Assembly: GCF_044704955.1 (NCBI RefSeq)
Contig: NC_091995.1
Span: 53,816,001 to 53,880,000, forward strand
Length of the DNA stretch: 64,000 bases
From: Pristiophorus japonicus
Taxonomy: Eukaryota
Direction: 5' to 3'
Position numbers and translations under genes: made by a program. The notes beneath the pieces are model-generated. The model saw nothing but the letters and a program-made list of their open reading frames with translations, made no database searches and was not told the origin of the DNA. Of this stretch, positions 11,466-64,000 are shown one piece after another. Every line of letters starts with the position of its first letter. Position 1 is the first letter of the stretch.

Positions 11466-11677
11466 TTATTGTGTTCCGAATACAGATGAGGCTGCACACA
11501 GGGAGCTTAAAGTAACAGTGACCACCGTCTTTATTAAGACACTCCAGAGTGAGGAACAGGCCTTAGGGGCCGGCTTATATACAGTGCTCCCAAGGGATGT
11601 TGGGATCCCTTGGGACTTCAGGGGATGAGCTCTCTGGTGGCGGAACATGGGAATGCATGCTTTGCAGATGCACAACA
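11466..11677 (-). repeat. 5' LTR of the Gypsy element
   Basis: Begins TGTTGTG on the minus strand; contains TATATAAG and AATAAA; followed by the PBS. Confidence 0.9.
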
Positions 11678-14600
11678 CCTGGGGCCCAGACCGGTGGGGA
11701 TTAAAGGAGCAGTGCCCGGGGCCCAGACTGGTGGGGAGTAAAGGAGCAGTGCCCGGGGCCCAGACCAGTGGGGATTAAATGACCAGTGCCCGGGGCACAC
11801 ACCAGTGGGGATTAAATGAGCAGTGCCCGGGGCCCAGACCAGCGAGGATTAAATGAGCAGTGCCCGGGGCCCAGACCGGTGGGGATTAAATGAGCAGTGA
11901 CTGGGGCCCAGACCGGTGGGGATAAAGGAGCAGTGCCTGGGGCCCAGACCGGTGGGGAGTAAAGGAGCAGTGCCCGGGGCCCAGACCAGTGGGGATTAAA
12001 GGAGCAGTGCCCGGGGCCCAGACCAGTGGGGATTAAATGAGCAGTGACTGGGGCCCAGACCGGTGGGGATAAAGGAGCAGTGCCTGGGGCCCAGACCGGT
12101 GGGGAGTAAAGGAGCAGTGCCCGGGGCCCAGACCAGTGGGGATTAAAGGAGCAGTGCCCGGGGCCCAGACCGGTGGGGATTAAAGGAGCAGTGCCCGGGG
12201 CCCAGACTGGTGGAGATTAAAGGAGCAGTGCCCAGGGCCCAGACCGGTGGGGATTAAAGGACCAGTGCCCGGGGCCCAGACCGGTGGGGATTAAAGGAGC
12301 AGTGCCCGGGGCCCAGACCGGTGGGGATTAAAGGAGCAGTGCCCGGGGCCCAGACCGGTGGGGATTAAAGGAGCAGTGCCCGGTGCCCAGGGCCCAGACC
12401 GGTGGGGATTAAATGACCAGTGCTCAGGGCCCAGACCGGTGGAGATTAAAGGACCAGTGCCCGGGGCCCAGACCGGTGGGGATTAAAGGAGCAGTGCCCG
12501 GGGCCCAGACCAGTGGGGATTAAAGGACCAGTGCCCGGGGCCCAGACCAGTGGGGATTAAAGGAGCAGTGCCCGGGGCCCAGACCGGTGGAGATTAAAGG
12601 AGCAGCGCCCGGGGCCCAGACCGGTGGAGATTAAAGGAGCAGTGCCCGGGGCCCAGACCGGTGGAGATTAAAGGAGCAGTGCCCGGGGCCCAGACCGGTG
12701 GGGAGTAAAGGAGCAGCGCCCGGGGCCCAGACCAGTGGGGATTAAAGGAGCAGTGCCCAGGGCCCAGACCGGTGGAGATTAAAGGAGCAGTGCCTGGGGC
12801 CCAGACCAGTGGCGATTAAAGGAGCAGTGCCCGGGGCCCAGACCAGTGGGGATTAAAAGAGCAGTGCCTGGGGCCCAAACCGGTGGGGATTAAAGGACCA
12901 GTGCTCGGGGCCCAGACAGGTGGAGATTAAAGGAGCAATGCCCGGGGCCCAGACCAGTGCGGAGTAAAGGAGCAGTGCCCGGGGCCCAGACCAGTGGGGA
13001 TTAAAAGAGCAGTGCCTGGGGCCCAAACCGGTGGGGATTAAAGGACCAGTGCTCGGGGCCCAGACTGGTGGAGATTAAAGGAGCAGTGCCCGGGGCCCAC
13101 AGCGGAGGGGATTAAAGGAGCAGTGCCCGACGCCCAGACCGGTGGGGATTAAATTACCAGTGCCCGGGGCACAGACCGGTGGGGATTAAAAAAGCAGTGC
13201 CCGGGGCCCAGACCGGCGAGGATTGAATGACCAGTGACTGGGGCCCAGACCTGTGGGGAGTAAAGGAGCAATGCCCGGGGCCCAGACCGGTGGGGAGTAA
13301 ATGACCAGTGCCCGGGGCCCAGACCGGTGGAGATTAAAGGAGCAGTGCCCGGGGCCCAGACCAGTGGGGATTAAAGGACCAGTGCCCAGGGACCAGACCG
13401 GTGGGGATTAAAGGAGCAGCGCCCGGGGACCAGACCAGTAGGGATTAAAGGACCAGTGCCCAGGGACCAGACCGGTGGGGATTAAAGGAGCAATGCCCGG
13501 GGCCCAGACCAGTGGGGATTAAAGGACCAGTGCCCGGGGCCCAGGGCCCAGACCGGTGGGGATTAAATGACCAGTGCCCAGGGCCCAGACCAGTGGAGAT
13601 TAAAGGACCAGTGCCCGGGGCCCAGACCAGTGGGGATTAAAGGACCAGTGCCCGGGGCCCAGACCGGTGGAGATTAAAGGAGCAGCGCCCGGGGCCCAGA
13701 CCAGTGGGGATTAAAGGAGCAGTGCCCGGGGCCCAGACCGGTGGGGATTAAAGGAGCAGTGCCCAGGGCCCAGACCAGTGCGGAGTAAAGGAGCAGTGCC
13801 CGGGGCCCAGACCAGTGGGGATTAAAAGAGCAGTGCCTGGGGCCCAGACTGGTGGGGATTAAAGGACCAGTGCCCGGGGCCCACAGCGGAGGGGATTAAA
13901 GGAGCAGTGCCCGGGGCCCAGACCGGTGGGGATTAAATGACCAGTGCCCGGGGCACAGACCGGTGGGGATTAAATGAGCAATGCCCGGGGCCCAGACCAG
14001 TGGGGATTAAAGGAGCAGTGCCCGGTGCCCAGGGCCCAGACCGGTGGGGATTAAATGACCAGTGCCCAGGGCCCAGACCAGTGGAGATTAAAGGACCAGT
14101 GCCCAGGGCCCAGACCAGTGGAGATTAAAGGACCAGTGCCCGGGGCCCAGACCAGTGGGGATTAAAGGAGCAGTGCCCGGGGCCCAGACCAGTGCGGAGT
14201 AAAGGAGCAGTGCTCGGGGCCCAGACCAGTGGGGATTAAAAGAGCAGTGCCTGGGGCCCAGACTGGTGGAGATTAAAGGAGCAGTGCCCGGGGCCCACAG
14301 CGGAGGGGATTAAAAGAGCAGTGCCCGGGGCCCAGACCGGTGGGGATTAAATGAGCAGTGCCCGGGGCACAGACCGGTGGGGATTAAATGAGCAGTGCCC
14401 GGGGCCCAGACCGGCGAGGATTGAATGACCAGTGACTGGGGCCCAGACCGGTGGGGAGTAAAGGAGCAGTGCCCGGGGCCCAGACCGGTGGGGAGTAAAG
14501 GAGCAGTGCCCGGGGCCCAGACCAGTGGGGATTAAATGACCAGTGCCCGGGGCACACACCAGTGGGGATTAAATGAGCAGTGCCCGGGGCCCAGACCAGC

Positions 14601-17600
14601 GAGGATTAAATGAGCAGTGACTGGGGCCCAGACCGGTGGGGATAAAGGAGCAGTGCCTGGGGCCCAGACCGGTGGGGAGTAAAGGAGCAGTGCCCGGGGC
14701 CCAGACCAGTGGGGATTAAAGGAGCAGTGCCCGGGGCCCAGACCAGTGGGGATTAAATGAGCAGTGACTGGGGCCCAGACCGGTGGGGATAAAGGAGCAG
14801 TGCCTGGGGCCCAGACCGGTGGGGAGTAAAGGAGCAGTGCCCGGGGCCCAGACCGGTGGGGAGTAAAGGAGCAGTGCCCGGGGCCCAGACCAGTGGGGAT
14901 TAAAGGAGCAGTGCCCGGGGCCCAGACCGGTGGGGATTAAAGGAGCAGTGCCCGGGGCCCAGACTGGTGGAGATTAAAGGAGCAGTGCCCAGGGCCCAGA
15001 CCGGTGGGGATTAAAGGACCAGTGCCCGGGGCCCAGACCGGTGGGGATTAAAGGAGCAGTGCCCGGGGCCCAGACCGGTGGGGATTAAAGGAGCAGTGCC
15101 CGGGGCCCAGACCGGTGGGGATTAAAGGAGCAGTGCCCGGTGCCCAGGGCCCAGACCGGTGGGGATTAAATGACCAGTGCTCAGGGCCCAGACCGGTGGA
15201 GATTAAAGGACCAGTGCCCGGGGCCCAGACCGGTGGGGATTAAAGGAGCAGTGCCCGGGGCCCAGACCAGTGGGGATTAAAGGACCAGTGCCCGGGGCCC
15301 AGACCAGTGGGGATTAAAGGAGCAGTGCCCGGGGCCCAGACCGGTGGAGATTAAAGGAGCAGCGCCCGGGGCCCAGACCGGTGGAGATTAAAGGAGCAGT
15401 GCCCGGGGCCCAGACCGGTGGAGATTAAAGGAGCAGTGCCCGGGGCCCAGACCGGTGGGGAGTAAAGGAGCAGCGCCCGGGGCCCAGACCAGTGGGGATT
15501 AAAGGAGCAGTGCCCAGGGCCCAGACCGGTGGAGATTAAAGGAGCAGTGCCTGGGGCCCAGACCAGTGGCGATTAAAGGAGCAGTGCCCGGGGCCCAGAC
15601 CAGTGGGGATTAAAAGAGCAGTGCCTGGGGCCCAAACCGGTGGGGATTAAAGGACCAGTGCTCGGGGCCCAGACAGGTGGAGATTAAAGGAGCAATGCCC
15701 GGGGCCCAGACCAGTGCGGAGTAAAGGAGCAGTGCCCGGGGCCCAGACCAGTGGGGATTAAAAGAGCAGTGCCTGGGGCCCAAACCGGTGGGGATTAAAG
15801 GACCAGTGCTCGGGGCCCAGACTGGTGGAGATTAAAGGAGCAGTGCCCGGGGCCCACAGCGGAGGGGATTAAAGGAGCAGTGCCCGACGCCCAGACCGGT
15901 GGGGATTAAATTACCAGTGCCCGGGGCACAGACCGGTGGGGATTAAAAAAGCAGTGCCCGGGGCCCAGACCGGCGAGGATTGAATGACCAGTGACTGGGG
16001 CCCAGACCTGTGGGGAGTAAAGGAGCAGTGCCCGGGGCCCAGACCGGTGGGGAGTAAATGACCAGTGCCCGGGGCCCAGACCGGTGGAGATTAAAGGAGC
16101 AGTGCCCGGGGCCCAGACCAGTGGGGATTAAAGGACCAGTGCCCAGGGACCAGACCGGTGGGGATTAAAGGAGCAGCGCCCGGGGACCAGACCAGTAGGG
16201 ATTAAAGGACCAGTGCCCAGGGACCAGACCGGTGGGGATTAAAGGAGCAATGCCCGGGGCCCAGACCAGTGGGGATTAAAGGACCAGTGCCCGGGGCCCA
16301 GGGCCCAGACCGGTGGGGATTAAATGACCAGTGCCCAGGGCCCAGACCAGTGGAGATTAAAGGACCAGTGCCCGGGGCCCAGACCAGTGGGGATTAAAGG
16401 ACCAGTGCCCGGGGCCCAGACCGGTGGAGATTAAAGGAGCAGCGCCCGGGGCCCAGACCAGTGGGGATTAAAGGAGCAGTGCCCGGGGCCCAGACCGGTG
16501 GGGATTAAAGGAGCAGTGCCCAGGGCCCAGACCAGTGCGGAGTAAAGGAGCAGTGCCCGGGGCCCAGACCAGTGGGGATTAAAAGAGCAGTGCCTGGGGC
16601 CCAGACTGGTGGGGATTAAAGGACCAGTGCCCGGGGCCCACAGCGGAGGGGATTAAAGGAGCAGTGCCCGGGGCCCAGACCGGTGGGGATTAAATGACCA
16701 GTGCCCGGGGCACAGACCGGTGGGGATTAAATGAGCAATGCCCGGGGCCCAGACCAGTGGGGATTAAAGGAGCAGTGCCCGGTGCCCAGGGCCCAGACCG
16801 GTGGGGATTAAATGACCAGTGCCCAGGGCCCAGACCAGTGGAGATTAAAGGACCAGTGCCCAGGGCCCAGACCAGTGGAGATTAAAGGACCAGTGCCCGG
16901 GGCCCAGACCAGTGGGGATTAAAGGAGCAGTGCCCGGGGCCCAGACCAGTGCGGAGTAAAGGAGCAGTGCTCGGGGCCCAGACCAGTGGGGATTAAAAGA
17001 GCAGTGCCTGGGGCCCAGACTGGTGGAGATTAAAGGAGCAGTGCCCGGGGCCCACAGCGGAGGGGATTAAAAGAGCAGTGCCCGGGGCCCAGACCGGTGG
17101 GGATTAAATGAGCAGTGCCCGGGGCACAGACCGGTGGGGATTAAATGAGCAGTGCCCGGGGCCCAGACCGGCGAGGATTGAATGACCAGTGACTGGGGCC
17201 CAGACCGGTGGGGAGTAAAGGAGCAGTGCCCGGGGCCCAGACCGGTGGGGAGTAAAGGAGCAGTGCCTGGGGCCCAGACCGGTGGGGATTAAAGGAGCAG
17301 TGCCCGGGGCCCAGACCAGTGGGGATTAAAGGAGCAGTGCCCGGGGCCCAGACCGGTGGAGATTCAAGGACCAGTGCCCGAGGCCCAGACCAGTGGGGAT
17401 TAAAGGAGCAGTGCCCGGTGCCCAGGGCCCAGACCGGTGGGGATTAAATGACCAGTGGCCAGGGCCCAGATCGGTGGAGATTAAAGGAGCAGTGCCCGGG
17501 GACCAGACCAGTAGGGATTAAAGGACCAGTGCCCGGGGCCCAGACCGGTGGGGATTAAAGGAGCAGCGCCCGGGGCCCAGACCGGTGGGGATAAAGGAGC

Positions 17601-19345
17601 AGTGCCTGGGGCCTAGACCGGTGGGGATTAAAGGAGCAGTGCCCGGGGCCCAGACTAGTGGAGATTAAAGGACCAGTGCCCGGGGCCCAGACCGGTGGGG
17701 ATTAAAGGAGCAATGCCCGGGGCCCAGACCAGTGGGGATTAAAGGAGCAGTGCCTGGTGCCCAGGGCCCAGACCGGTGGGGATTAAAGGACCAGTGCCCG
17801 GGGCCCAGACCGGTGGAGATTAAAGGAGCAGTGCCCGGGGCTCAGACCAGTGGGGATTAAAGGAGCAGTGCCCGGGGCCCAGACCAGTGGCGATTAAAGG
17901 AGCAGTGCCCGGGGCCCAGACCAGTGCGGAGTAAAGGAGCAGTGCCCGGGGCCCAGACCAGTGGAGATTAAAGGAGCAGTGCCCGGGGCCCAGACCAGTG
18001 GCGATTAAAGGAGCAGTGCCCGGGGCCCAGACCAGTGGGGATTAAAGGAGCAGTGCCCGGGGCCCAGACCAGTGGCGATTAAAGGAGCAGTGCCCAGGGC
18101 CCAGACCAGTGGGGATTAAAAGAGCAGTGCCTGGGGCCCAAACCGGTGGGGATTAAAGGACCAGTGCTCGGGGCCCAGACTGGTGGAGATTAAAGGAGCA
18201 GTGCCCGGGGCCCAGACTGGTGGAGATTAAAGGAGCAGTGCCCGGGGCCCAGACCGGTGGGGATTAAAGGACCAGTGCCCGGGGCCCAGACTGGTGGAGA
18301 TTAAAGGAGCAGTGCCCGGGGCCCACAGCGGAGGGGATTAAAGGAGCAATGCCCGGGGCCCAGACTGGTGGAGATTAAAGGACCAGTGCCCGGGGCCCAG
18401 ACCGGTGGGGATTAAAGGAGCAATGCCCGGGGCCCAGACTGATGGAGATTAAAGGACCAGTGCCCGGGGCCCAGACCGGTGGGGATTAAAGGAGCAGTGC
18501 CCGGGGCCCAGACCAGTGGAGATTAAAGGAGCAGTGCCCAGGGCCCAGACCAGTGGGGATTAAAGGAGCAGTGCCCGGGGCCCAGACCGGTGGGGATTAA
18601 ATGAGCAGTGCCCGGGGCCCAGACCGGTGGGGATTAAAGGAGCAATGCCCGGGGCCCAGACCGGTGGGGATTAAAGGAGCAGTGCCCAGGGCCCAGACCG
18701 GTGGGGATTAAAGGAGCAGTGCCCGGGGCCCAGACCGGTGGGGATTAAAGGAGCAGTGCCCGGGGCCCAGACCGGTGGGGATTAAAGGAGCAGTGCCCGG
18801 GGCCCAGACCGGTGGGGATTAAATGAGCAGTGCCCGGGGCCCAGACTGATGGGGATTAAATGAGCCGTGCCCGGGGCCCAGACCGGTGGGGATTAAATGA
18901 TCAGTGCCCGGGGCCCAGACCGGTGGGGATTAAAGGAGCAGTGCCTGGGGCCCAGACTGATGGGGATTAAAGGAGCAGTGCCCGGGGCCCAGACTGATGG
19001 GGATTAAAGGAGCAGTGCCCGGGGCCCAGACCGGTGGGGATTAAAGGAGCAGTGCCTGGGGCCCGACTGATGGGGATTAAAGGAGCAATGCCCGGGGCCC
19101 AGACCGGTGGGGATTAAAGGAGCAGTGCCTGGGGCCCAGACTGATGGGGATTAAAGGAGCAGTGCCCGGGGCCCAGACTGATGGGGATTAAAGGAGCAGT
19201 GCCCGGGGCCCAGACCGGTGGGGATTAAAGGAGCAGTGCCTTGGGCCCAGACTGATGGGGATTAAAGGAGCAGTGCCCGGGGCCCAGACTGATGGGGATT
19301 AAAGGACCAGTGCCCATAGCCCAGACCGGTGGGGATTAAATGAGC
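11678..19345. repeat. 37-bp GC-rich satellite (GGGGCCCAGACCGGTGGGGATTAAAGGAGCAGTGCCC)n with a 2757-bp higher-order duplication
   Basis: About 7.7 kb of tandem units; rare variants recur at +2757 (11796/14553, 13128/15885, identical ORFs at 13937/16694). Confidence 0.97.
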
Positions 19346-23005: not shown

Positions 23006-23568
23006 GAATGGCATAGAATGACCAGTGTGGGACGTAGAAGATCTGATATGGAGGATAAGATAGCATCATACATTTTTACAAAGATTAATGTGTCCCAGCA
23101 ATGGGTACTGGACATGATTCATTCTGACAACCCTCAGGATAGAGCTGCAGAGTGGACAGGGAGTGTAAAGCACAAGAAGTCAAAGGAAAAGGCAGTCTGG
23201 CTCTTGTGCCTACAAAGCCAAGTCCGACTGCTCTGGCATCAGGTTGAGTGCCTCAAAGTGGGGCTGAGAGAGTCACAAGAGCAGTCTGTACCAGCGAAAG
23301 CTGAAGGGACATAAAGCCAGTTAAAGGACATTAAGGCCACATACAGGGTAGCTCGGAGTAGGAGCTACGAGGATTGTGACCATGGTCCTGATGAGGAAAG
23401 AATTAAGAACTTGACCCAAGCTTTGTCAGGACCCCGAGGCATGGTCTGACTTATGGTGCCGGGCAAACCGCGGGTTGAATGAGAAGGGCAGGAACCTCCA
23501 CCGGTACAAGAGACAGAAGCTCAGGTTAGGGTAGTCCCAACAGCACCAGAGGTGCAACTGAGACCGAT

Positions 23569-23933
23569 GACTGGACAGGTTAGATGCGGGAAGAATGTTC
23601 CCGATGTTGGGGAAGTCCAGAACCAGGGGACACAGTCTAAGGATAAGGGGTAGGCCATTTAGGATTGAGATGAGGAGAAACTTCTTCACTCAGAGAGTTG
23701 TTAATCTGTGGAATTCACTGCCGCAGAGAGTTGTTGATGCCAGTTTATTGGATATATTCAAGAGGGAGTTAGATATGGCCCTTACGGTTAGGGGGGATCA
23801 AGGGGTATGGAGAGAAAGCAGGAAAGGGGTACTGAAAGAATGATCAGCCATGATCTTATTGAATGGCGGTGCAGGCTCGAAGGGCCGAATGGCCTACTCC
23901 TGCACCTATTTTTCTATGTTTCTATGTTTCTAT
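23569..23933 (+). mobile_element. CR1 3' fragment inserted in ERV gag
   Basis: MFPMLGKSRTRGHSLR..; (TTTCTATG)n tail. Confidence 0.9.
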
Positions 23934-24221
23934 GTGTCCTCTGTGGCAGCAGAGATACGGCCCATCCACACCAAACCGCGACCAGGGACCGTGACAGAAT
24001 GATTACGTGGTCCCATTCACCACCCCTCAGTTACAGGCCATGGTTGCTGGTCTACCAAAGTTAAAACAGGATGGGGATCCCTCGGTTCACTTCATGGAAG
24101 TTGAGCAAGTAGTGGGGATTAATGGGTGTAATGATGACCAGACCCACAGGCTGATACTGTGTTCCCTGGATACAAAACTGTATCAGAACTTGTCCGCAGA
24201 CATGAAAGCGGGGTGAGGCAC

Positions 24222-25139
24222 CATCATCATAGGCAGTCCCTCGGAATCGAGGCAGACTTGCTTCCACTCCCAAAGTGAGTTAATTGATTGCTGAACAGTC
24301 CGATACGAGAGCCACAGACCCTGTTACAGGTGGGACAGACATTCATCGAGGGAAGGGGTCGGTGGGGCTGGTTAGCTGCGCGCTCCTTCCACTGCCTGCG
24401 CCTGGCCTCTTCACGCTCTTTGCGTTGAGACTCTAAGAGCTCAACGCCTTCCCGGATGCACTTTCTCCACCTCGGGCGGTCTGCGGCCAGGGTCTCCCAG
24501 GTGTCAGTGGTGATGTCGCACTTTACCAGGGAGGCTTTGAGGGTGTCCTTATAACGTTTCCGCTGTCCCCCTTTGGCTCGTTTACCACGAAGGAGCTCCG
24601 CATAAAGCATTTGCTTAGGGAGTCTCGTATCTGGCATGCGAACTATGTGAAGCTGATCGAGTGTGGTCAGTGCTTCAATACTGGGGATGTTAGCCTGGTC
24701 GAGGACACTAATGTTGGTGTGCCTGTCCTCCCAGGGGATTTGCAGGATCTTGTGGTGACATCGTTGGTGATATGTCTCCAGTGACTTGAGGTGCCTTCTA
24801 TACATCGTCCATGCCTCAGATTCATACAGGAGGGCGGGTATTACTACAGCCCTGTCGACCATGAGCTTGGTGGTAGATTTGAGGGCCTGGTCTTCAAACA
24901 CTCTTTTCCTCAGATGGCCGAAGGCTGCACTAGCACACTGGAGGCGATGTTGAATCTCCGCATCAATGTCGACCTTTGTTGATCAGAGGCTCCCGAGATA
25001 TAGGAAATGGTCCGCGTTGTCGAGGGCCGCGTCAAGGATCTTGATGATTGGAGGGCAGTACTGTGTGGTGGTGACAGGCTGGTGGAGCACCTTTGTCTTA
25101 CGGATGTTAAGCATAAGTCCCATGCTTTCATCTGCCTCA
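24222..25139 (-). mobile_element. RTE LINE 3' fragment inserted in ERV gag
   Basis: RTE C-terminal ORF 24227-24901 with CPTC finger, (ATG)n tail; 9-bp TSD GTGAGGCAC at 24213-24221 and 25140-25148. Confidence 0.92.
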
Positions 25140-25811
25140 GTGAGGCACAATAGAGGGGTTAAAGGAGGAAATCCTGAGAGTGATGGGGCAATACCCAGGG
25201 TAGTCTGTTCTCACAGGTAGAGCAGACCCTACAGTTGTCCGGCGAGGCGCCAGTTGCCTTTGCGGACAGGCTATGGCCAGTGTACGCGAGGGCAACTGGA
25301 GGGGTGTCAAACCATGCACAACTGATCGGGGCCCCCAGAAATCACTGGCTCAGGACCCTAATCGCGAACAGCTTGCCACGTGTTAAAGCCAAGGCTGAAG
25401 CATGGTTCGATGCCGACGACCCCACCAACACGGAGGCAGGCGTGCTCCGTAAGTTAGGACTGGCCTTTAAGACCAGCTGTGGGGAAGAGACCAAAAGTAA
25501 GAGTAGGATCTGCGCGATCAAGGTCAGTAAAGGGGATAGGAGGGAATGGTGTCAGGAGGGGCCCCACACTGATGTGTCTAAGACTTATTTTAGATGTGGA
25601 GAAACGGGGCACTGGAGACGGGACGGCCCGCTCCAGAAAACGGGACCCGGGAGGAAACCCCAGCCAACCGAGGCGAAAAGGGCGACCGAGGAAACCTTCG
25701 AGGTCCTGGTGGCAGCCCTCCGTACATGTGCTGGGGAAGGACAGAGGGAGGCTAGATGCTGTCGTGAGTAGCGTTGTGCCGACTGAGCCCGTATGCCCTC
25801 CTTCATCCTGA

Positions 25812-28800
25812 CTAGAATGTGCCCAGCCTCAGTACCTGTGTCCACTCCTCTATGATGAGTGGGGCAGGCCCTGTGTGAAGGTGGGGGTCGAGACGGTTCA
25901 GGGGAAGTATTTGGTGGACACCGGAGCTTCAAGCACGGTGGTCCACTCAAAGCACCCAACCAACTAGCCCCGGTCTAACAAGGTCCCATTGAGTTTAATG
26001 GGATTCACAGGGAGTGAGCAGGCAGGAGCGATGTCTAAACCCCTGAAAATACAGTCAGGGTCTCTCACCACCACGTAGGAGTGTGTGTTAATGAAATGGG
26101 AACAACCCGGGTGGGGAGTCTTCGGGTACGATTTTATGTTAGCACACAGGATCATTGTAGACATGAGGAATCACTGCCTATGGGGGGGCAGTCGGATCAG
26201 ACAAGGTGGAAGAGGTGGTAGTTATTCCCAGGGACAAGGGGGACAGGGATAGTGTCTGCACCATGAAACCCAAGGGGAGTTACAACCTGGAACAGTTGGT
26301 CAGTAACACCCCAGCCCAGTACCAGGTGGATGTGAGGAATAACCTCGCTGCATTCACCACCCACAAACAGATTGTGGACGGGTGACTGAAGTAGAGGTTT
26401 GGGTGGACGGGGGCCCTGTGTCACGGCCTCAGAAACAGTACAGTTTTCCCCGGGAAGCAGAGGCAGACCTGGAAACAGCGCTGGGATCCCTAGTACAACA
26501 GGGAGTGTTGAGAACGATTGCCACGCATGTGAACTCCCCACTCTGGCCGGTCAATAAACACGAACAGTTGTGGAGGGCCACTGTGGGCTATCGGGTCCTC
26601 AACAGCAACATCCCAGCTTGTGCGCCCAGAGTCGCGGCTGTCGCTGACCTGATCGGAAATATCCCAGCGACCGCGATATTTCCAACGGTTTCTGGTCCAT
26701 CCCACTCTGCTGGGAAGACCAGTATAAGTTTGCATTTACATTTAAAAACAACAGTATACTTGGATGTGTCTTCCCCAGGGTTTTCACAACAGCCCCTCCA
26801 TTTTCCACCAGAACATGGCCAATGCTCTGAAACAATTTAGCCAGCCCCAGCAGCTCATTCAGTATGTGGAAGACATTCTCCTTTTCTCTTCGGATAGAGA
26901 GGAGCACGGGCCACTGCTGGATGAGCTGCTCAAACTATTAAGGGAGGCGGGTTTTAAAGTTAACCCGAAGAAAGCACAGGTTGATCAGAAGGAGGTGAAA
27001 TTCCTCGGGCTGACTGTCAGAGCGGGTGAGAGGGCCATTGATGAAGCCAGGCGTAAGGCAATACAAGAGCTCCCAAAAACATATCGGGGGTCAGGTCTTT
27101 CCTGGGACTCACTGGTTGCTGCAGAGACTTCATTGAAGGGTATACAGCCACGGCAGCCCCTCTACTTCGGCTCCTCCGCAAGGGAGTCGAATGGGAGTGG
27201 GACCTCAATTGCCAAGAGGCATTCACTCGCCTAAAAAGGGATTTGCAGACAGCACCTGCGTTGGGTGTGATTAATCAAGGGGAAGAGTTCTCCCTGGAGG
27301 TAGTGGCCAGCGGGGATAGTTTGAGCATGGTGTTGCTCCAGGAGTGACAAGGCAGACTGAGACCCGTGGTCTACTCCTCCAGGGTTCTCATGGATGTCGA
27401 ACGGGGATATTCCAACTGCGAGAGGCATTTGCTAGCCACGCATTGGGCCTTAAAGCGCTCCCAGCTCTTTACAGGTTCATCCACTCTTACACTCCTCACC
27501 CGTCACACGCCCACGCAGATGCTGCTGGACGGCAGGATTAAGGATGGACAGTGAGCAGTTCTTGCATTGCTCACTGGTCCCTGCTGCTCTCACAGACAAA
27601 TCTGAGAATGCAGGGGTTGACCGAACCCAAGTTAGCAGCTAATATGATCTCCCCAGGGACAGCCCACACATGCACGGTGGAAGGGGTATGGGATGTGGAG
27701 GAGCGACTCAGGGCTGGGATACACCCGATGGGCCGGGACATCTATGTGGATGGGTCCAGCACCGCATCTGATGGGGAGCGTCCCACCGAGTGTGGGATCT
27801 ATGACCCAACAGCTAAAGTTGAGAAGGCCATAAAGCTCCCCAACACCATGAGCGCTCAGCACACCGAACTGGAAGCAGTGGCCTATGTGGTGACCCATCC
27901 CATCGGGTTCCCTACTCCATACATCATTTGCTCAGATTCAATGTTCACATGCAACTCCTGCACAGAATATTTGGCAATCTGGGCAAGGCGAGGTTTTAAG
28001 TCCACCGATGCACAAGGTTTTAGAGGCCACTGGCACTCGAGGGGATTACTAGATCCACAAGGTGAAACCTTACTCCAAAACGGAGCCGAGAGGGGAAAGG
28101 AACCAAAAGGCCGACGAGCTAGCCAAAAGGGGAGCTAGGGAGGGCATTTTATGGGATCCAGGTGGAGCAGGTCCAATAGCAGCGATCCGGGACAGGGGAG
28201 GCATGCAGGGGATAGCTCTGGCCCCAGATCTCAAACAGACACAGGCCCAGGACCCTGTTCTTAAAGCTGTCCTACTAGACAGAGAGAAAGGGGAAAATGT
28301 AGAGGGTGCTGCAGACATTTGCGTCCGGGACGGAATGCTTCAAGGGGGACCGGTGGGTGGTCCCAGCACAGCACCGAGAGGAATTCCTCCAGCTGGCCCA
28401 CAGGGGCCCAGGGGCGGGACACCTGGGGCCAGAAACGACTTGGCAGAGAGTAGAGGAGGCAGGGTGGCGGCCACAGCTGAGGGAGGATGTCCGGGACTTC
28501 TGTGCACATTTTCTGGTGTGCGCAGCAAACAATCCCGACCCCCAGCGCAGGAAGGCTCCCCTGGGACACACCAGGAGGATGGAGGGGCTGTGGTGATCAT
28601 TGCAGATCGATTTCATCGGGCCCCTACCCACCACTAAATCAGGTAATAAATACTGTTTATTTGGTGGACGTTTTTTTAAAGTGGGTTGAAGCCTTCCCTT
28701 GCCGAGCGGCCACAGCCCTGGCCACTGCTCGGATCCTGGTAAAGGAGGCATTCTCCAGGTGGGGGCTGTCCCAGGTCATGGAGTCCAACCAGGGAAGCCA

Positions 28801-29609
28801 CTTTACGGGTCAAGTGATGCAACCATCCTGAAACTCCTGGGGATAGAGGGGAAATGGCATGTGGCTCACAACCCTCAGTCATCAGGGATAGTGGAGCGCA
28901 TGAACCGGACCCTGAAGGAACAGTTGAGGAAGGAGGTGGGCCAGTTCCCAAAAACCCGGACGAGGTTTTGCCTCTGATTCTCATGGGGGTCCGACCCAGC
29001 CCCTCCAGGAGCACAGAGTACTCCCCTGATGAGCTGATGACCGGGAGGACCATGCGCACTCCAACCCATGTGTTGGTGCCGGTCCTCACCGAGACACAGC
29101 TCCGGGAGGTAGACCGGGATAAGTTTGTACAGCAGCTGTACAGTACTTTAAAACAAGTCCACATCCAGGCAGCCAACAGCCTGGGGAGGCAGCACCAACA
29201 CAATCGGCTGTTGCTAGAGTCTCAGTACACACATGAATGGGAGGTGGGGGACCAGGTAATGGTCTGTAATTATACCCGAGTGGGGGTGTTTGAGCCACTG
29301 TACATGGGGCCGTACATCATCGTTGACAAGGCGAGCCCCATGGTCTACGCAGTGAAGCTCCCCATATGCACGAAATGGTTCCACATCAACCAGTGCAAGC
29401 TGGTCAAGCCCGATGATGGAAGGACCAGGGCTAAAAGGCACCAGGGCACCACCATGAGCCTGGTGGAGGTGGGTCTCCCTCCCCTGATATGGGACAACGA
29501 TGACCCGGTAAAAGGGGCGGTAAGGAGGAGCAGTCTGATCCCACGGCCGAGGGTGCCGTGGTCACCTCCCTACTCGCCCACCACGAGCCGCAAGAGGCCC
29601 CGAGTGTAG
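25812..29609 (+). pseudogene. pol: ERV pol: protease, RT, tether (degenerate RNase H), RNase H, integrase with GPY/F
   Basis: LVDTGAS (DTG 25917-25925); NSPLWPVNK, LPQGFHNSPSIF, QYVED (26863-26874); RPVVYSSR..YSNCERHLLA; IYVDGS..SAQHTEL..SDS..NQKADELAK; [37 protein letters not shown]. Confidence 0.92.
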
Positions 29610-30676
29610 AGTCATGGGGCTCTCGAGCCCTGCGACTACCGGACCCACAGTCTATATAGTTTGTTTTACATTTTGTTTCGTTGTCAGTCTGTGTGTGTCC
29701 TGCTGCTTGTGTATAACCTGATGGAACTGTGGAGGAGAAAACTCTCTCACAGAACGGATTTTTGCTTGTGTTTTATGTTATAGGAAAGTAAGGAAGTCCA
29801 AGAACACCAAGGGAATGCCAGGAACGTTCGTTGTGGTCCTGTTCCTGAACTGGTTTGGGATCGGCAGCTTGGAGAGGGGAGACACTGAGGAGTCCGTCCT
29901 GTACGGCTGCACTGGGGGGAAAGGACCCAGCATGGTACGGGGGGGTAGGACTGGGGACACCGACGGTGTGGCAGCCTACTTCCATGAGGGAAGCTGGTCG
30001 GGGTGGCTGGGATCCAATTCCTCGCGGTATTCCAGCAGCAAGGCTTTCACGTATGGCGAAGCTTCCATCCCGTGCCCCGGGCTACAAGTCACGGCCACAC
30101 GGGTTAGGGTGACCGAGGGGAGGCGCGTATACTTGCAGTGTGAGGGACACATACCCCTGGGACGGTGGTGGTGGCTCAGGAAATTGAGCCAAGATAAAGG
30201 CAATCGATCCGTGGACTGGGAACAGCTGGGGAACGATGTGTACCGTCAGATTATGGGGACGAAGGGGAGCGTTGAAGTGTACTGGCACAAATGGTGGAAA
30301 GAAGAGGTCGGAATTTACGTGTGTATGTGGGGGTCTGAATGGGTCTGCCCTGTCGGTCGCGTTTTCACCACGGTGACAAGACTCCAGGACCGAGATCGGT
30401 TGGGGACGGAGTATGAACTCCTGTGTGATCCCAGACTCTCCAGATACCGTAAATTCCATGGAGTTGCTAGCACGCGAGGTAGAGCCCCTTCCCACAACCC
30501 ACCAGTACAGGACAGAGGTTAAATGCCCCACCACCACCCCGAAGCCAAGGAATGGGTTGGTGCTAGGCCCGACCGGCAAGATACTTTACCATGATGTGCA
30601 CTACTCGGTCACCTCGGTTATCTTAACCTGACCCAGGTTCACTGCCACGGTGGTGTCCTGCATAGACCGAAAGGCT

Positions 30677-31213
30677 TAGAAACATAGAAACATAGAAAAT
30701 AGGAGCAGTAGTAGGTCATTCGGCCCTTCGAGTCTGCACCGCCATTCAATATGATCATGGCTGATCCTCTCTCAACACCATATTCCCGCTTTTTCCCCAT
30801 ACCCCTTGATATCTTTTGTTTCTAGAAATCTATCTATCTCCCTCTTAAATATATTCAGTGACTTAGCCTCCACAGCCTTGTGTGGTAGAGAATTCCACAG
30901 GTTCATCACCCTCTGAGTGAAAACATTTCTCCTCATTTTGGTCCTAAATTTCTGAGATTGCGACCCCTTGTTCTAGACATCCCAGCCAGGGGAAACATCC
31001 TCCCCGCATCCAGTCTATCCAACCCAGTCATAATTTTATACGTTTCAATGAGATCCCCTCTCATTCTTCTAAACTCTAGTGAATACAGGCCTAGTCGACC
31101 CAATCTCTCCTCATACGACAGTCCTGCCATCCCAGGAATCAGTCTGGTGAACCTTTGCTGCACTCTCTCTATGGCAAGTATATCCTTTCTTAGGTAAGGA
31201 GAGCAAAACTGCA
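30677..31213 (-). mobile_element. CR1 3' fragment inserted in ERV env
   Basis: (TAGAAACA)n tail; ORF 30933-31214 matches the CR1 RT C-terminus; removing it rejoins ..TER-LYEALLKEMF. Confidence 0.9.
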
Positions 31214-32046
31214 CTACGAGGCTCTGCTTAAAGAAATGTTTAGGAAGTTCTATGAGTTAAGTTACGGTGGCGTGGATCAGAACAGTGTGTATGATCTGAC
31301 CTCAGGTCAGTGCGGGCGGTTGGGAAAGGTACAAACAGGGGCTGTTTAACGACGCAGCCACAGCATTTAGCACTGGCATGTCCATTGTTTACAGTATGGG
31401 CGATGCTCAGTTGCAAATGCAGGTAAATACCTTGAGGGATCGGTTGCACAAGATACTGCGAGAAGGTAACGTGATAGAGGGGTCAGAGTTACGGAAGGAT
31501 CAGGCTATGACCATCCATTTGAAGGAGATCATAGCCGAGCTGGAGGCACACGCTCAAACGATTAACAGTTGGATCCGAGAAGATCGGAATGCCTCAGCTC
31601 AGGTGGCAAGCTGTGTGTTGTACGGTGCTTGGCTGCTGAATGAAGGATGCAGTAATTGGGAGGACCTTCAACAAGGTCGCATTCCTTCATGGATCAGCAA
31701 CTGACACCTCACCGCGCTCAGCCCGTACAAAGGTTCCATGAGCCCTGTGCCAACTCCGACTCGCCTCAGAGGCTTACCCAGTCCCGGTAGATTGTGTCCG
31801 GTCCAACGCTACGGTAATGGGGGTTGTACTTCGGATGCCGGTGATGAGCGGGTCACCACGATTGGCACTGGTATACCGAGTACAGAACATCGGCGTTCTG
31901 AGGGACATCATGGGGTGCCACCGTTTGTTGTAAAGTGGGGATCCACCATGCCCGGCACTGACCTTACTGGGTGCCAGAGCAGGGGAGCACACGTGGTACT
32001 ATGTCCTCAGCATTTGTATTCTTTTGATCAACCGATGTGTGGGTTT

Positions 32047-32419
32047 GTGTGTGTGTGTGTAGAGACGTGATCGGGGCCCAGGGGAGGCGTGAGGTCGGGG
32101 CCAGGCCCAGGGGCAGCACGGGCCAGCCCACACTGCGATATGTGTGCACAGAGGTCCGTGCAGCAGAGCAGGTCTCCAGTCATCTTGGTTAACTCTTGCC
32201 ACTGGACCAAGACCTAGCTCTGTCAAGCCCATGTGGTGGCTGGTGTGCAACAGCCACCACACGTTACAAAAATCCACGCACAGGCATCTTCCACCCCTCA
32301 GGATGTAGTTCGTGACCTGGAATATTAGGTCCTGCATTGAAACACCTGTGAACTCATCCTTTTTTGGCGTGGAAGCAAGTCATCCTTGCTTCGAGGGACC
32401 GCCTATGAAGATGATGATG
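32047..32419 (+). mobile_element. Short non-autonomous RTE-tailed element (SINE-like) inserted in env
   Basis: 3' end GGAAGCAAGTCATCCTTGCTTCGAGGGACCGCCTATG..(ATG)n is shared with the local RTEs; 10-bp TSD GTGTGGGTTT at 32037-32046 and 32420-32429. Confidence 0.85.
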
Positions 32420-33371
32420 GTGTGGGTTTACATCAGAGGGTGCGGAGCCCATTAATTGCACCATGGAGGTGATGGCCCAGAGCCACGTTCCACCCCAGGT
32501 AGCTTACACAGGCGGAGGGACATACTGTATCACGACCAGCGTGACTCAGTACCGAGTGTGTAACCACACTTGGTGTCCAGTTACAGATCAGATCTTCTGT
32601 TTCAAACCCTACACCGAGGTCCAGATAGCCCAAGAACGTATTATCCCCATCGCGGAACCCGGTACTGATCACATCACGGTAAACGACACCATCCGCGATT
32701 TGTAGCGGTATGTAACTCAGTTTGGTAACGAGTTTCCACCTCTGCCCGAACACCTCACAAAACTACTCAAAGAGGTTGAACTATCCCAAAAACACTTTTA
32801 CATCCTGGTACAGCAGAACCGGGAAAGGGAAAGGAGATAAAACTGCTTGTATCTCCACCATGGTGGGACATTGGCGTTGACATCGAGGTCCCTCCATGGA
32901 TTTGGGTCATTTCTCATGTGTTGGTGTTAGCTCAATGTGTGATAACCGTGTACCTGATTCATTTATGCTGCAGAAAGCGTGGAAAGGTACTCAGAAATCA
33001 GCAGTTAGCGTTGATCGACAACCAGCCCGGAATTTGAAACGTCTCTTGCCTGTTCCCGCGGGATGTGTGTAAATACCTATATATTTCGTCTGGAGAATGT
33101 ATTTATGTATTTTCTGTCACTGTTTGTAAGGGCACTCAAACCCTGGCTGCTGACAGTTGATTAAAGTTTTGGCCATGGCGGTGAGTTGCCTGGTTTTAAA
33201 GGAACGTTGGTAATACCCTTTGTAAAGTGTGTTATAAACGTTATATGCTGTAACCGCAGAGGGGGACCCATGGGGAATAGGTAACTTCGGTTTGGGAGGG
33301 CTATCACGAGGCATTCTCCTCGGAAGGATGATATTTTCCCCGTGGAGGACAGTGTTAATATCAAAGGGGAG

Positions 33372-34195
33372 TCGACAAAGTCAACTCTGGACTGTTGTGT
33401 TTATATCCCTGTTGGCTGTACACCCTGAAAAGGACTTTTGAAATACTGTGACACAAGATGGCTGGTCTGGATTAGGAAGAAACCTGTTGCTGGGAGAAAC
33501 ATGTGGGGTGGGTCTCTCCCACAGAAACTGGTGAGAGAAGCTAGGTCTGTTCAAATGTTAATTTGAACACTGGCCTGGCAGCAGCCAATGGGTACTCTTA
33601 GGGAGGGCAAGGGACTCTTGTGTGTGGAACCAGGTTGTCTCGGGAAGATAGCAAGGAGCTAGGACAAGACCAACACCTGCATTATCTCCACAATGGTCCA
33701 GCAATCAGGACTGATGGGTCATTTAAAACCCACTCGGGAAGCCTTCGGACATCGATCGGCTGGCTTTGTTCTGACCCCACCACATCTCAGATAGCGCGGA
33801 ATAAGACCTGAAGGAGCCAGAGAGGTTCCCCGGAGGGAACAGAACCAGCCAAACCCAGCCAGAATTGTGGATTACAGGAGTATAACTGTTGAGCGTTTTG
33901 GAAGCTCTCTCTTCGTTCTATCGCATCCTACATGAAGGCACGTTTGTCCACCTCTCGAGGATAAGGACCGAGAGCCAAGCCTCTGCAACCCGACAGACTT
34001 CAACTTTAACCTGGATCTCGCATACTTCAGCCAAGCACGAGGCCATGGAGTCGAACCACTGAGGAAGGACCAGCGAGCAAGGAAGAGTGGATTGGGTGAG
34101 TACTCAATAGTTGCACGCTCAGCAACCGATCCACGAAAGTGCATGATGGGGTGTCAGTGTGCCCTAACCAAACCAGAGGGGTGTTTAGAGTTAAC
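33372..34195 (+). repeat. Putative 3' LTR of the ERV
   Basis: Follows the purine tract AAAGGGGAG (33363-33371); non-coding; ends ..TTAACA. There is no partner LTR in the window to confirm it. Confidence 0.4.
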
Positions 34196-56687: not shown

Positions 56688-57390
56688 TAGAAACATAGAA
56701 ACATAGAAAATAGGTGCAGGAGTAGGCCATTCGGCCCTTCGAGCCTGCACCGCCATTCAACAAGATCATGGCTGATCACCCAGCACCTCCCCCCCACGCA
56801 CCCCCGACCCCCCCAGCCGCAAGGACCATATCCAACTCCCTCCCGAACACATCCAATGAACTGGCATCAACAACTCTCCGCCACAGGGATCCCCACAGGC
56901 CAACAACTCCCCGAGTGAAGAAGTCTCTCCCCATCCCAGCCTCAAACAGCCCACCCCCCATCCCCAGAGCGTGACCCCGCCCCCCCACCCCCCGGCTCCG
57001 GACCCACCCAACACGGGGAACACCCCCCCGAACCCAACCCGCCCTGTCCCGTCAGAATCCTTCCCAAATGCCGACCACCCCCGGATGTCGAGCCCCCAGC
57101 CCAGGCCACCCCGGAGCCACGCCCCCGCGACGTCAAGCACACCACATCCACCAACCGCCATCTACGCAGTCAACCCGTCCACCCCACTCCGAACATCCCC
57201 GCACCGAGGCACAGAGCCCCCAGGCCCGTCCCTCCAACACACTTTGCCCCCCCCCCAGACCTCCGCTGCAATGTGGCCGCTCCTGTCCCCCGCCCTGGGT
57301 TTCTCCGGTCCCCACCTCCACGACTCTCCCCTCCATCCCCTGCCCCCGTCTCCCCTCAACTTCCCTCTGCCTCCCTGCACAGGCTCCCAC
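56688..57390 (-). mobile_element. Internally deleted CR1 copy with strand-biased hypermutation
   Basis: CR1 tail and 3' end joined to the ORF1/ORF2 junction (compare 800-1105); many plus-strand T are C. Confidence 0.8.
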
Positions 57391-57552
57391 CTCGGGGGTG
57401 GTAACCTTCTGGGGCAGGGAATTTCAGCCCCCAGCGTGGAAGTCCTGCTCCCGCCGCAGAATTGGCCTTACCACCCGTCAATGGAAGCAGAGTGCAATTT
57501 CCCACACTCCACTTCCCTTGGAGGCAGTGACCAGGGCATGACTGGATGCTCA

Positions 57553-60500
57553 TGTGACAGTTTGAACTGGTGCTCTCCACTCTCTGTCCTGTGACAGTTT
57601 GAACTGGTGCTCTCCACTCTCTGTCCTGTGACAGTTTGAACTGGTGCTCTCCACTCTCTGTCCTGTGACAGTTTGAACTGGTGCTCTCCACTCTCCCGTC
57701 CTGTGACAGTTTGAACTGGTGCTCTCCACTCTCTGTCCTGTGACAGTTTGAACTGGTGCTCTCCACTCTCCCGTCCTGTGACAGTTTGAACTGGTGCTCT
57801 CCACTCTCTGTCCTGTGACAGTTTGAACTGGTGCTCTCCACTCTCTGTCCTGTGACAGTTTGAACTGGTGCTCTCCACTCTCCCGTCCTGTGACAGTTTG
57901 AACTGGTGCTCTCCACTCTCTGTCCTGTGACAGTTTGAACTGGTGCTCTCCACTCTCCCGTCCTGTGACAGTTTGAACTGGTGCTCTCCACTCTCTGTCC
58001 TGTGACAGTTGGAACTGGTGCTCTCCACTCTCTGTCCTGTGACAGTTTGAACTGGTGCTCTCCACTCTCTGTCCTGTGACAGTTTGAACTGGTGCTCTCC
58101 ACTCTCTCTCCTGTGACAGTTGGAACTGGTGCTCTCCATCTCTCTGTCCTGTGACAGTTTGAACTGGTGCTCTCCACTCTCTGTCCTGTGACAGTTTGAA
58201 CTGGTGCTCTCCACTCTCTCTCCTGTGACAGTTTGAACTGGTGCTCTCCACTCTCTCTCCTGTGATAGTTTGAACTGGTGCTCTCCACTCTCCGTCCTGT
58301 GACAGTTTGAACTGGTGCTCTCCACTCTCTCTCCTGTGATAGTTTGAACTGGTGCTCTCCACTCTCCGTCCTGTGACAGTTTGAACTGGTGCTCTCCACT
58401 CTCTGTCCTGTGACAGTTGGAACTGGTGCTCTCCACTCTCTGTCCTGTGACAGTTTGAACTGGTGCTCTCCACTCTCTGTCCTGTGACAGTTTGAACTGG
58501 TGCTCTCCACTCTCTGTCCTGTGACAGTTAGAACTGGTGCTCTCCACTCTCTGTCCTGTGACAGTTGGAACTGGTGCTCTCCACTCTCTGTCCTGTGACA
58601 GTTTGAACTGGTGCTCTCCACTCTCTGTCCTGTGACAGTTAGAACTGCTGCTCTCCACTCTCTGTCCTGTGACAGTTTGAACTGGTGCTCTCCACTGTCT
58701 GTCCTGTGACAGTTGGAACTGGTGCTCTCCACTCTCTGTCCTGAGACAGTTGGAACTGGTGCTCTCCACTCTCCCGTCCTGTGACAGTTTGAACTGGTGC
58801 TCTCCATTCTCCCATCCTGTGACAGTTGGAACTGGTGCTCTCCACTCTCCCGTCCTGTGACAGTTTGAACTGGTGCTCTCCACTCTCTGTCCTGTGACAG
58901 TTTGAACTGGTGCTCTCCACTCTCTGTCCTGTGACAATTTGAACTGGTGCTCTCCACTCTCTCTCCTGTGACAGTTTGAACTGGTGCTCTCCACTCTCTG
59001 TCCTGTGACAGTGTGAACTGGTGCTCTCCACTCTCTGTCCTGTGACAGTGTGAACTGGTGCTCTCCACTCTCCCGTCCTGTGACAGTTTGAACTGGTGCT
59101 CCCCACTCTCCCGTCCTGTGACAGTTTGAACTGGTGCTCTCCACTCTCCCGTCCTGTGACAGTTTGAACTGGTGCTCTCCACTCTCTGTCCTGTGACAGT
59201 TTGAACTGGTGCTCTCCACTCTCTGTCCTGTGACAATTTGAACTGGTGCTCTCCACTCTCTCTCCTGTGACAGTTTGAACTGGTGCTCTCCACTCTCTGT
59301 CCTGTGACAGTGTGAACTGGTGCTCTCCACTCTCTGTCCTGTGACAGTGTGAACTGGTGCTCTCCACTCTCCCGTCCTGTGACAGTTTGAACTGGTGCTC
59401 CCCACTCTCCCGTCCTGTGACAGTTTGAACTGGTGCTCTCCACTCTCTGTCCTGTGACAGTTTGAACTGGTGCTCTCCACTCTCTGTCCTGTGACAGTTG
59501 GAACTGGTGCTCTCCATCTCTCTCCTGTGACAGTTTGAACTGGTGCTCTCCACTCTCTGTCCTGTGACAGTTTGAACTGGTGCTCTCCACTCTCTGTCCT
59601 GTGACAGTTTGAACTGGTGCTCTTCACTCTCCCGTCCTGTGACAGTTTGAACTGATGCTCTCCACTCTCGGTCCTGTGACAGTTTGAACTGGTGCTCTCC
59701 ACTCTCCCGTCCTGTGACAGTTTGAACTGGTGCTCTCCACTCTCCCGTCCTGTGACAGTTTGAACTGGTGCTCTCCACTCTCTGTCCTGTGACAGTTTGA
59801 ACTGGTGCTCTCCACGCTCTGTCCTGTGACAGTTGGAACTGGTGCTCTCCACTCTCCCGTCCTGTGACAGTGTGAACTGGTGCTCTCCACTCTCTGTCCT
59901 GTGACAGTTTGAACTGGTGCTCTCCACTCTCTGTCCTGTGACAGTGTGAACTGGTGCTCTCCACTCTCTGACATGCGACAGTGTGAACTGGTGCTCTCCA
60001 CTCTCTGTACTGTGACAGTTTGAACTGGTGCTCTCCACTCTCTGTCCTGTGACAGTTTGAACTGGTGCTCTCCACTCTCTGTCCTGTGACAGTTTGAACT
60101 GGTGCTCTCCACTCTCCCGTCCTGTGACAGTTTGAACTGGTGCTCTCCACTCTCTGTCCTGTGACAGTTGGAACTGGTGCTCTCCACTCTCTGTCCTGTG
60201 ACAGTTGGAACTGGTGCTCTCCATCTCTCTCCTGTGACAGTTTGAACTGGTGCTCTCCACTCTCTGTCCTGCGACAGTTTGAACTGGTGCTCTCCACTCT
60301 CCCGTCCTGTGACAGTTTGAACTGGTGCTCTCCACTCTCTGTCCTGTGACAGTTAGAACTGGTGCTCTCCACTCTCTGTCCTGTGACAGTTTGAACTGGT
60401 GCTCTCCACTCTCTGTCCTGTGACAGTTTGAACTGGTGCTCTCCACTCTCTGTCCTGTGACAGTTGGAACTGGTGCTCTCCATCTCTCTCCTGTGACAGT

Positions 60501-63500: not shown

Positions 63501-64000
63501 CAGTGTGAACTGGTGCTCTCCACTCTCCCGTCCTGTGACAGTTTGAACTGGTGCTCCCCACTCTCCCGTCCTGTGACAGTTTGAACTGGTGCTCTCCACT
63601 CTCTGTCCTGTGACAGTTTGAACTGGTGCTCTCCACTCTCTGTCCTGTGACAGTTGGAACTGGTGCTCTCCATCTCTCTCCTGTGACAGTTTGAACTGGT
63701 GCTCTCCACTCTCTGTCCTGTGACAGTTTGAACTGGTGCTCTCCACTCTCTGTCCTGTGACTGTTTGAACTGGTGCTCTCCACTCTCCCGTCCTGTGACA
63801 GTTTGAACTGATGCTCTCCACTCTCGGTCCTGTGACAGTTTGAACTGGTGCTCTCCACTCTCCCGTCCTGTGACAGTTTGAACTGGTGCTCTCCACTCTC
63901 TGTCCTGTGACAGTTTGAACTGGTGTTCCCCACTCTCTGTCCTGTGACAGTTTGAACTGATGCTCTCCACTCTCTGTCCTGTGACAGTGTGAACTGGTGC
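57553..64000. repeat. 37-bp satellite (TGTGACAGTTTGAACTGGTGCTCTCCACTCTCTGTCC)n, running off the window end
   Basis: More than 6.4 kb of tandem units; blocks of variant units recur (60140/61214, period 1074). Confidence 0.97.

Follow-up and report, generated by a model that had tools for sequence, protein, structure and literature searches.

The broken envelope gene in the 64-kb stretch of DNA analysed here (the window) raises two questions: what kind of fusion protein its family encodes, and which retroviruses that family belongs to. The locus is an env copy of a high-copy endogenous retrovirus (ERV). It is a dead copy, from which the protein cannot be made, because two insertions, several frame changes and in-frame stops interrupt it. 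The explanation that best accounts for the whole, and which we hold with considerable confidence, is that this ERV is likely related to snakehead retrovirus (SnRV) and likely of a shark, and that the family's Env joins a predicted paramyxovirus-F-type core to a likely immunoglobulin (Ig)-fold head.

The env copy and the element around it

The first-pass annotation of this DNA had assembled an F-type class I fusion protein from a series of peptide motifs. Translation in three frames places all of them on the forward strand, in the order that it gave:

30551-30628, + strand: F2-like piece
near 30650, + strand: WCP
from 31215, + strand: YEALLKEMF
31327-31410, + strand: cleavage site and fusion peptide
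up to about 31600, + strand: heptads
near 31670, + strand: DLQQGRIPSWIS
31820-31895, + strand: GVVLRMPV/VYRVQNIG
31960-32046 and 32420-32610, + strand: Cys-rich block
about 32700-32830, + strand: second helix
32903-32959, + strand: transmembrane segment (TM; mean hydropathy 2.1 over 19 residues)

Relative to the natural frames of other copies, the reading frame changes near 30350, 30630, 31310, 31735, 31890, 32815 and 33010, and in-frame stops lie near 30630, 31700 and 32700. The two insertions that had been proposed within env, one CR1 and one SINE-like, are borne out by repeat matches, a direct repeat and the continuity of other copies. Among 36 loci compared, the first site (30678-31214) is uninterrupted in all eight copies for which both flanks were found, and the second (32047-32419) in all 29 such copies. 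We take the first insert to be CR1 from its ORF2 end and repeat tail. The second has only its 3' tail in common with RTE-like LINEs and is flanked by a 10-bp direct repeat.

The gene had been thought to begin at 30540. We place its start approximately 730 bases upstream, at 29815, where a signal peptide leads into a likely Ig-fold domain, because a single natural frame runs from the head region into the F2-like part in 9/16 other copies and the same order is found in one skate protein. Other copies also have a single open frame that extends from the head as far as the TM. The 266-codon frame at 29722-30522 is part of env and not a separate gene. Cleavage had also been described as early, in a layout unlike the SU/TM arrangement of orthoretroviruses. 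Instead, the cleavage position comes after approximately 330 codons, which encode the signal peptide, the likely Ig-fold domain, the Pro/Thr-rich linker and the F2-like part and make up a real surface subunit on the predicted F core; about 400 codons lie between that position and the TM, and the whole precursor has approximately 780 residues. The window copy's own cleavage site has no furin motif match. Across the family, a basic cleavage site precedes the fusion peptide and heptad, with an R-X-K/R-R furin-type motif in 20/28 frames matched by pattern (26 loci; two spurious double matches are counted as misses).

The env copy sits in an LTR retrovirus with gag, a pol encoding a tether plus RNase H, and a 3' LTR:

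23015-25771, + strand: gag, broken; collinear with a near copy and with a natural Gag frame
about 23570-23931: CR1 piece splitting gag
24213-25143: RTE-like LINE piece splitting gag
25772-29609, + strand: pol, frameshifted; reverse transcriptase (RT), tether, RNase H, integrase with GPY-type motif and SH3-like end
29815-29880, + strand: env start and predicted signal peptide; ATG, then a hydrophobic run (mean 2.15 over 13 residues)
30031-30381, + strand: likely Ig-fold domain at the Env front; Pfam Ig_3, CRTAM alignment, same frame as the F core elsewhere
30382-30540, + strand: Pro/Thr-rich linker from head to fusion core; 3' of a frameshift in this copy
30541-31338, + strand: F2-like part (long strand, helix) to the cleavage position; split by the CR1 piece
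30678-31214, - strand: CR1-type LINE 3' fragment in env; eight CR1-like relatives in the window, 71-93% identity
31339-31660, + strand: fusion peptide (moderately hydrophobic, 1.0 over 15 residues) and heptad helices (HR1 region)
31661-32700, + strand: beta-rich, Cys-rich F1 domains; broken by stops, frameshifts and the second insert
32047-32419, strand not given: SINE-like insert in env; RTE-like 3' tail, CA/GT run at one end, 10-bp target duplication
32701-33037, + strand: second helix (HR2/stalk), Trp-rich stretch, TM and short tail
33370-34193, + strand: 3' LTR, first part; cut by a CR1 insertion

A CCHC zinc knuckle lies near the gag end (zf-CCHC, E 0.0055 here and 4.5e-5 in another copy). 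Pfam matches in pol were RVT_1 (3e-21), RT_RNaseH_2 (5e-8), RNase_H (4e-9) and rve (0.014), with stronger matches in other copies, and from position we infer a protease in the pol region. The LTR part at 33370-34193 was recognised through a near copy, L025/L050, whose 5' LTR it matches at 83-94%; no second match, for the 5' LTR or for the remainder of the 3' LTR, was found within the 64-kb window. That near copy (C19:55.676-55.686 Mb) lies 1.8 Mb away, is 92-97% identical, and is without the env inserts and the second gag insert; identity between its own two LTRs is 84% over one part and 98% over the other. Elsewhere in the window, a long tandem array (37-bp unit, about 205 copies) occupies 11550-19000, and a second strongly skewed stretch lies at the window end, at about 57000-64000.

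The family is a very large one, its candidate relatives in this genome numbering in the thousands. The fusion-peptide piece gave 12,231 candidate places and the head piece 8,432, both being first-look candidates rather than copy numbers. All 150 head candidates scored were strong. The env observation is not due to chance, because each of the 150 scored fusion-peptide candidates (of the 12,231) reached E <= 3e-43. LTR pairs, 84-98% identical and ending in TG...CA, were found in 7/9 copies examined and not in the other two; a target duplication, of 4 bp, was seen in one copy. Subfamilies (L054, L060, L058, L062, L052) vary in LTR length (approximately 1.0-1.6 kb) and primer-binding sequence, which in one of them is presumably of Arg type (by tRNA assignment), as in SnRV. 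Family copies also occur on several contigs in arrays with a spacing of approximately 40-70 kb (C1:402.7-403.1 Mb; C3:13.9-14.3, 20.5-22.1, 26.8-27.1 and 86.4-86.6 Mb; C5:36.2 Mb). Six sampled array copies (L113-L118) are 92-99% identical, and four of the six have a head frame of 263-264 codons with an identical ending. The likely source is a single defective copy that was amplified as part of a large unit.

Predicted fold of the Env core and its head

The structural models were built on relatives, and the window gene itself was not mended. The sequence folded came from another copy (L015), whose natural frame shares 52-62% identity with the F1 pieces of the window. A first model, from 28 close copies, had a pLDDT of 32 and was discarded. 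With 44 rows that included distant relatives, the model reached a pLDDT of 71 and a pTM of 0.65, with the HR2 end and the cleavage loop below a pLDDT of 50. On these models, the F-type fold suggested by the first-pass annotation was supported by three routes: Foldseek, exhaustive structural alignment and ESM Atlas.

All 36 matches listed by Foldseek against the PDB were paramyxovirus or pneumovirus F (E 1e-10 to 6e-9), although TM-scores to solved F were only 0.29-0.44 and rmsd was high. Residues 6-75 of the model align with the F2 portion of these proteins. Exhaustive alignment with VIA-align against 48,161 chains placed PIV5 F at the top (Z 12.4, 356 aligned, rmsd 9.0), followed by GhV F, hMPV F (Z 12.0) and RSV F (11.9). 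Foamy Env scored Z 10.0 over 289 aligned positions with an rmsd of 4.7, the lowest among full-length structural matches. The top 16 rows were all F or foamy Env, and the first unrelated row scored Z 5.0. Matches in BFVD included lispi/arli-type glycoproteins, baculovirus F, and the Envs of walleye epidermal hyperplasia virus 1 (1e-10) and walleye dermal sarcoma virus (2e-7). The third route used ESM Atlas's own model of a sawshark relative, for which the PF00523 cluster came first (0.92, 201/256 features), with a TM of 0.58 to the Baculo_F cluster.

A gamma-type Env was also looked for: neither CX6CC nor ISD occurs in any of five reference frames, and no gamma-, beta- or lentiviral Env appears among the fold matches listed, although that is a weak absence. 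F ranks first, ahead of foamy Env. The earlier opposition of F to foamy Env was a false choice, since foamy Env is itself built on an F core (PMC11468914). Pfam PF00523 and PF12259 gave no match in 14 window pieces, 9 natural frames or 20 relatives; four profiles of the Env core or head, run against PDB sequences, found no F chain. A protein search with the window's 134-aa piece yielded no match among 104 candidates. Taken as a structural prediction, the family's Env core has the F2/F1 fold of paramyxovirus and pneumovirus F.

The front domain is likely an Ig fold, judged from sequence comparison. The window domain matches Pfam Ig_3 at E 0.0076, which is below the cut-off, and 4/19 members match, over a range of E 0.008-0.04. 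It aligns over the whole domain with the V domain of CRTAM, weakly (E 0.64), with its two Cys, Trp and G-x-Y-x-C in Ig register; all of these scores are sub-threshold. Heads that look Ig-like, though not necessarily homologous to one another, are also seen in the Env of sharks, frogs and SnRV. The head profile reached the SnRV head at E 0.004 and gave no alignment with the head of a frog protein (P0141), and V-set matches were 0.045 for the head of P0148 and 0.064 for the front of SnRV Env. The head of a bamboo-shark relative received an Ig result of 0.93 in ESM Atlas. A frog Pol of the same RT group (see below) runs into a signal peptide and Ig domain, and a matching Ig domain heads the F-type Env of P0148. 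Long uninterrupted proteins combining Ig and F-type Env are present in databases: P0129 (bamboo shark, 739 aa), P0141 (frog, 723 aa) and P0148 (749 aa).

One alternative accepts the F likeness but gives the front domain a fold other than Ig, or no part in receptor binding, so that it serves, for example, as a shield or spacer. The sub-threshold Ig scores of the window domain and the wide divergence of heads between subfamilies speak for that reading; the Cys, Trp and G-x-Y-x-C residues in Ig register and the Ig-like heads of shark, frog and SnRV Env speak against it, and we consider it unlikely.

On this arrangement, a working model can be drawn from class I fusion biology. The precursor would enter the secretory route through its signal peptide and, given the fold, trimerise. 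Furin would recognise the family's R-X-K/R-R site and cut after approximately 330 residues. Receptor binding at the cell surface would fall to the front subunit (Ig-like head, Pro/Thr linker and F2-like part), and insertion of the N-terminal fusion peptide and refolding into a six-helix bundle to the F1-like subunit. F has been described as a minimal scaffold that takes binding modules N-terminally, as in coronaviruses, or between subunits, as in foamy viruses (PMC11468914); by analogy, the family would be a retroviral case of an N-terminal module on the F scaffold.

Retroviral lineage and hosts

Forty Env relatives were found among 1.84 billion proteins, of which 25 were examined and 20 carried an organism name. 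The host of the Env family is likely cartilaginous fish, because 15 of these 20 are from sharks or skates; three are from frogs, two from coelacanth and none from teleosts.

Among viral contigs, the best RT match was SnRV (E 3e-80, 38% identity), the next being 5e-67. The tree of the RT-tether region used 43 rows, a chosen subset of 120 Pol matches plus 13 viral contigs, with delta as the sole representative of class II and with neither fish foamy-like elements nor the published Loki sequences among them. The element fell inside canonical retroviruses (100/99), grouped with frog and coelacanth elements (93/95), and lay outside the loki, foamy and class I clades. A clade of SnRV, ERV-L-like rows and this group is absent from the best tree, and a constraint to it was not rejected (p 0.085); basal branches are without firm support, and the constraint groups were chosen once a first tree had been built. 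In Env, a deep profile aligned with SnRV at HHalign E 1.5e-5 over 292 collinear columns, with a profile score of 7.9 against at most 1.9 in 300 shuffles; a shallow profile was not significant (E 0.29). Across 59 viral frames, the deep profile reached walleye virus Env at 3.5e-6 and foamy Env at 1.5e-5, and gamma Env at 0.08 or worse, through helices and TM. The Pol and Env comparisons suggest that the element is likely related to SnRV. The walleye epsilonretrovirus Env matches (L106:5962-9650) suggest that an F-type Env is present in a class I lineage as well.

ERV3/ERV4 are characterized by absence of a Gag zinc finger, absence of a GPY/F motif and a 5-bp target duplication (PMC4299795 table 1), whereas this family has a CCHC knuckle, a GPY motif after integrase and, in one copy, a 4-bp duplication. 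SnRV-related ERVs were left unclassified in PMC4299795.

A lokiretrovirus newly found in cartilaginous fish was the first guess for this element, and was dropped after mapping of the loki RT motif, by which the loki rows in the trees were picked, and after the RT tree. An F-like Env with an R-X-K/R-R site and a tether plus RNase H are loki features present here, neither of them exclusive to loki, and the top Pol matches carry the name NYNRIN-like and come from frogs, coelacanth and turtle, groups that also host loki elements. However, the NYNRIN-like name is also given to gamma-type Pol matches, no named Env relative is from a teleost, and the loki RT motif (50 occurrences in the PMC7947760 supplement) marks a separate teleost clade in the trees. 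Five motifs of the frog/coelacanth set occur 0 times in the 300 accessible pages of that 318-page supplement, and constraining the element to group with lokiretroviruses was rejected (p-AU 0.00023). We regard a loki identity as very improbable.

Somewhat less remote, but still improbable, is that the element is foamy-like (clade Tu), or a recombinant with a loki or foamy env on an SnRV-like pol. The low rmsd to foamy Env, its recovery by profile and the 4-bp target duplication are in keeping with this. Against it, the RT lies outside the mammalian foamy clade (five mammalian-type foamy genomes, one with confirmed identity) and is approximately 30% identical to foamy RT as against 38% to SnRV. 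Gag carries a CCHC knuckle, Env has no large domain between F2 and F1, unlike foamy Env, and the pairing of this Env with this Pol recurs across sharks, frogs and coelacanth (in sets without fish foamy-like elements and Loki Env).

Implications and comparison with known systems

An F-like retroviral Env is not in itself new. It has been published for lokiretroviruses, whose Env resembles PF00523 (PMC7947760), for foamy viruses (PMC11468914, PMC12390576, PMC12583693) and for errantiviruses (bioRxiv 2023.10.26.564294); the RT of the present family lies outside the loki and foamy clades. In the literature searched, whose scope did not take in Calcraft et al. 2024 (possibly on fish retroviral Envs), no F fold was stated for the Env of SnRV-like, walleye or shark ERVs, nor an Ig head on one. 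The accessible parts of PMC12193657, PMC8922424, PMC6001957, PMC9040795, PMC11521997, PMC12440569, PMC13709493 and bioRxiv 2024.03.17.585361 contain no such statement.

On the origin of retroviral env, Wang and Han (PMC7947760) set out four scenarios that compare loki with canonical Env. That an F-type Env lies within canonical retroviruses but outside foamy viruses, and reaches SnRV and walleye Env, favours its presence early in the family. We tentatively propose, as a possibility that we rate at somewhat under even, that an F core with swappable N-terminal heads was the ancestral retroviral Env, retained in the shark/amphibian/coelacanth lineage, SnRV, walleye epsilonretroviruses, foamy viruses and lokiretroviruses. 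Gamma- and beta-type Envs would then be later replacements, and Ig heads captured from host adhesion genes would have made a one-protein spike for attachment plus fusion. Coronaviruses equip the F scaffold for receptor binding with an N-terminal subunit and foamy viruses with an insertion; an N-terminal Ig-like head would be a third solution. The structural claim is directly testable because SnRV is an extant, culturable virus.

Among known systems, SnRV and SnRV-like ERVs (clade Huo, Xu et al. 2018, PMC6001957) share with the family an Env that is collinear over the F core and a V-set-like Env front. SnRV Env differs in its length (1134 residues versus approximately 780 here) and in having several cleavage motifs rather than one; the family has a short tail and no accessory frame seen between env and LTR, and its grouping with SnRV is absent from the best tree, though not rejected. 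Lokiretrovirus Env (PMC7947760) is alike in its signal peptide, R-X-K-R site, fusion peptide, coiled coil, TM and PF00523 likeness, and its element in dual RNase H. The family differs from it in an RT outside the loki clade, in having no smc gene seen here and in its likely Ig head, none being described in the accessible part of that paper, whose supplement scored 0 of 3 chondrichthyan genomes positive for lokiretroviruses. Foamy Env (8rm0; PMC11468914) is likewise a retroviral Env on an F core (class Ib) with an added binding module, but the module lies between the subunits, whereas here it is N-terminal; foamy Env has a leader peptide, and the family has a type I signal peptide and an RT that is not foamy. 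Paramyxovirus and pneumovirus F (PF00523; 2b9b, 7sem, 8wsq) share the predicted F2/F1 fold, a fusion peptide at the new N-terminus, Cys-rich beta domains and an HR2 before the TM. Compared with them, the family has approximately 240 extra N-terminal residues and 8-14% identity, and is an LTR retrovirus without a separate attachment gene. Finally, the errantivirus/baculovirus F-type Env (bioRxiv 2023.10.26.564294) is also an F-type fusogen on an LTR element, but the errantivirus Env is carried with an invertebrate Ty3/gypsy pol, whereas the pol of this family is retroviral, with tether plus RNase H.
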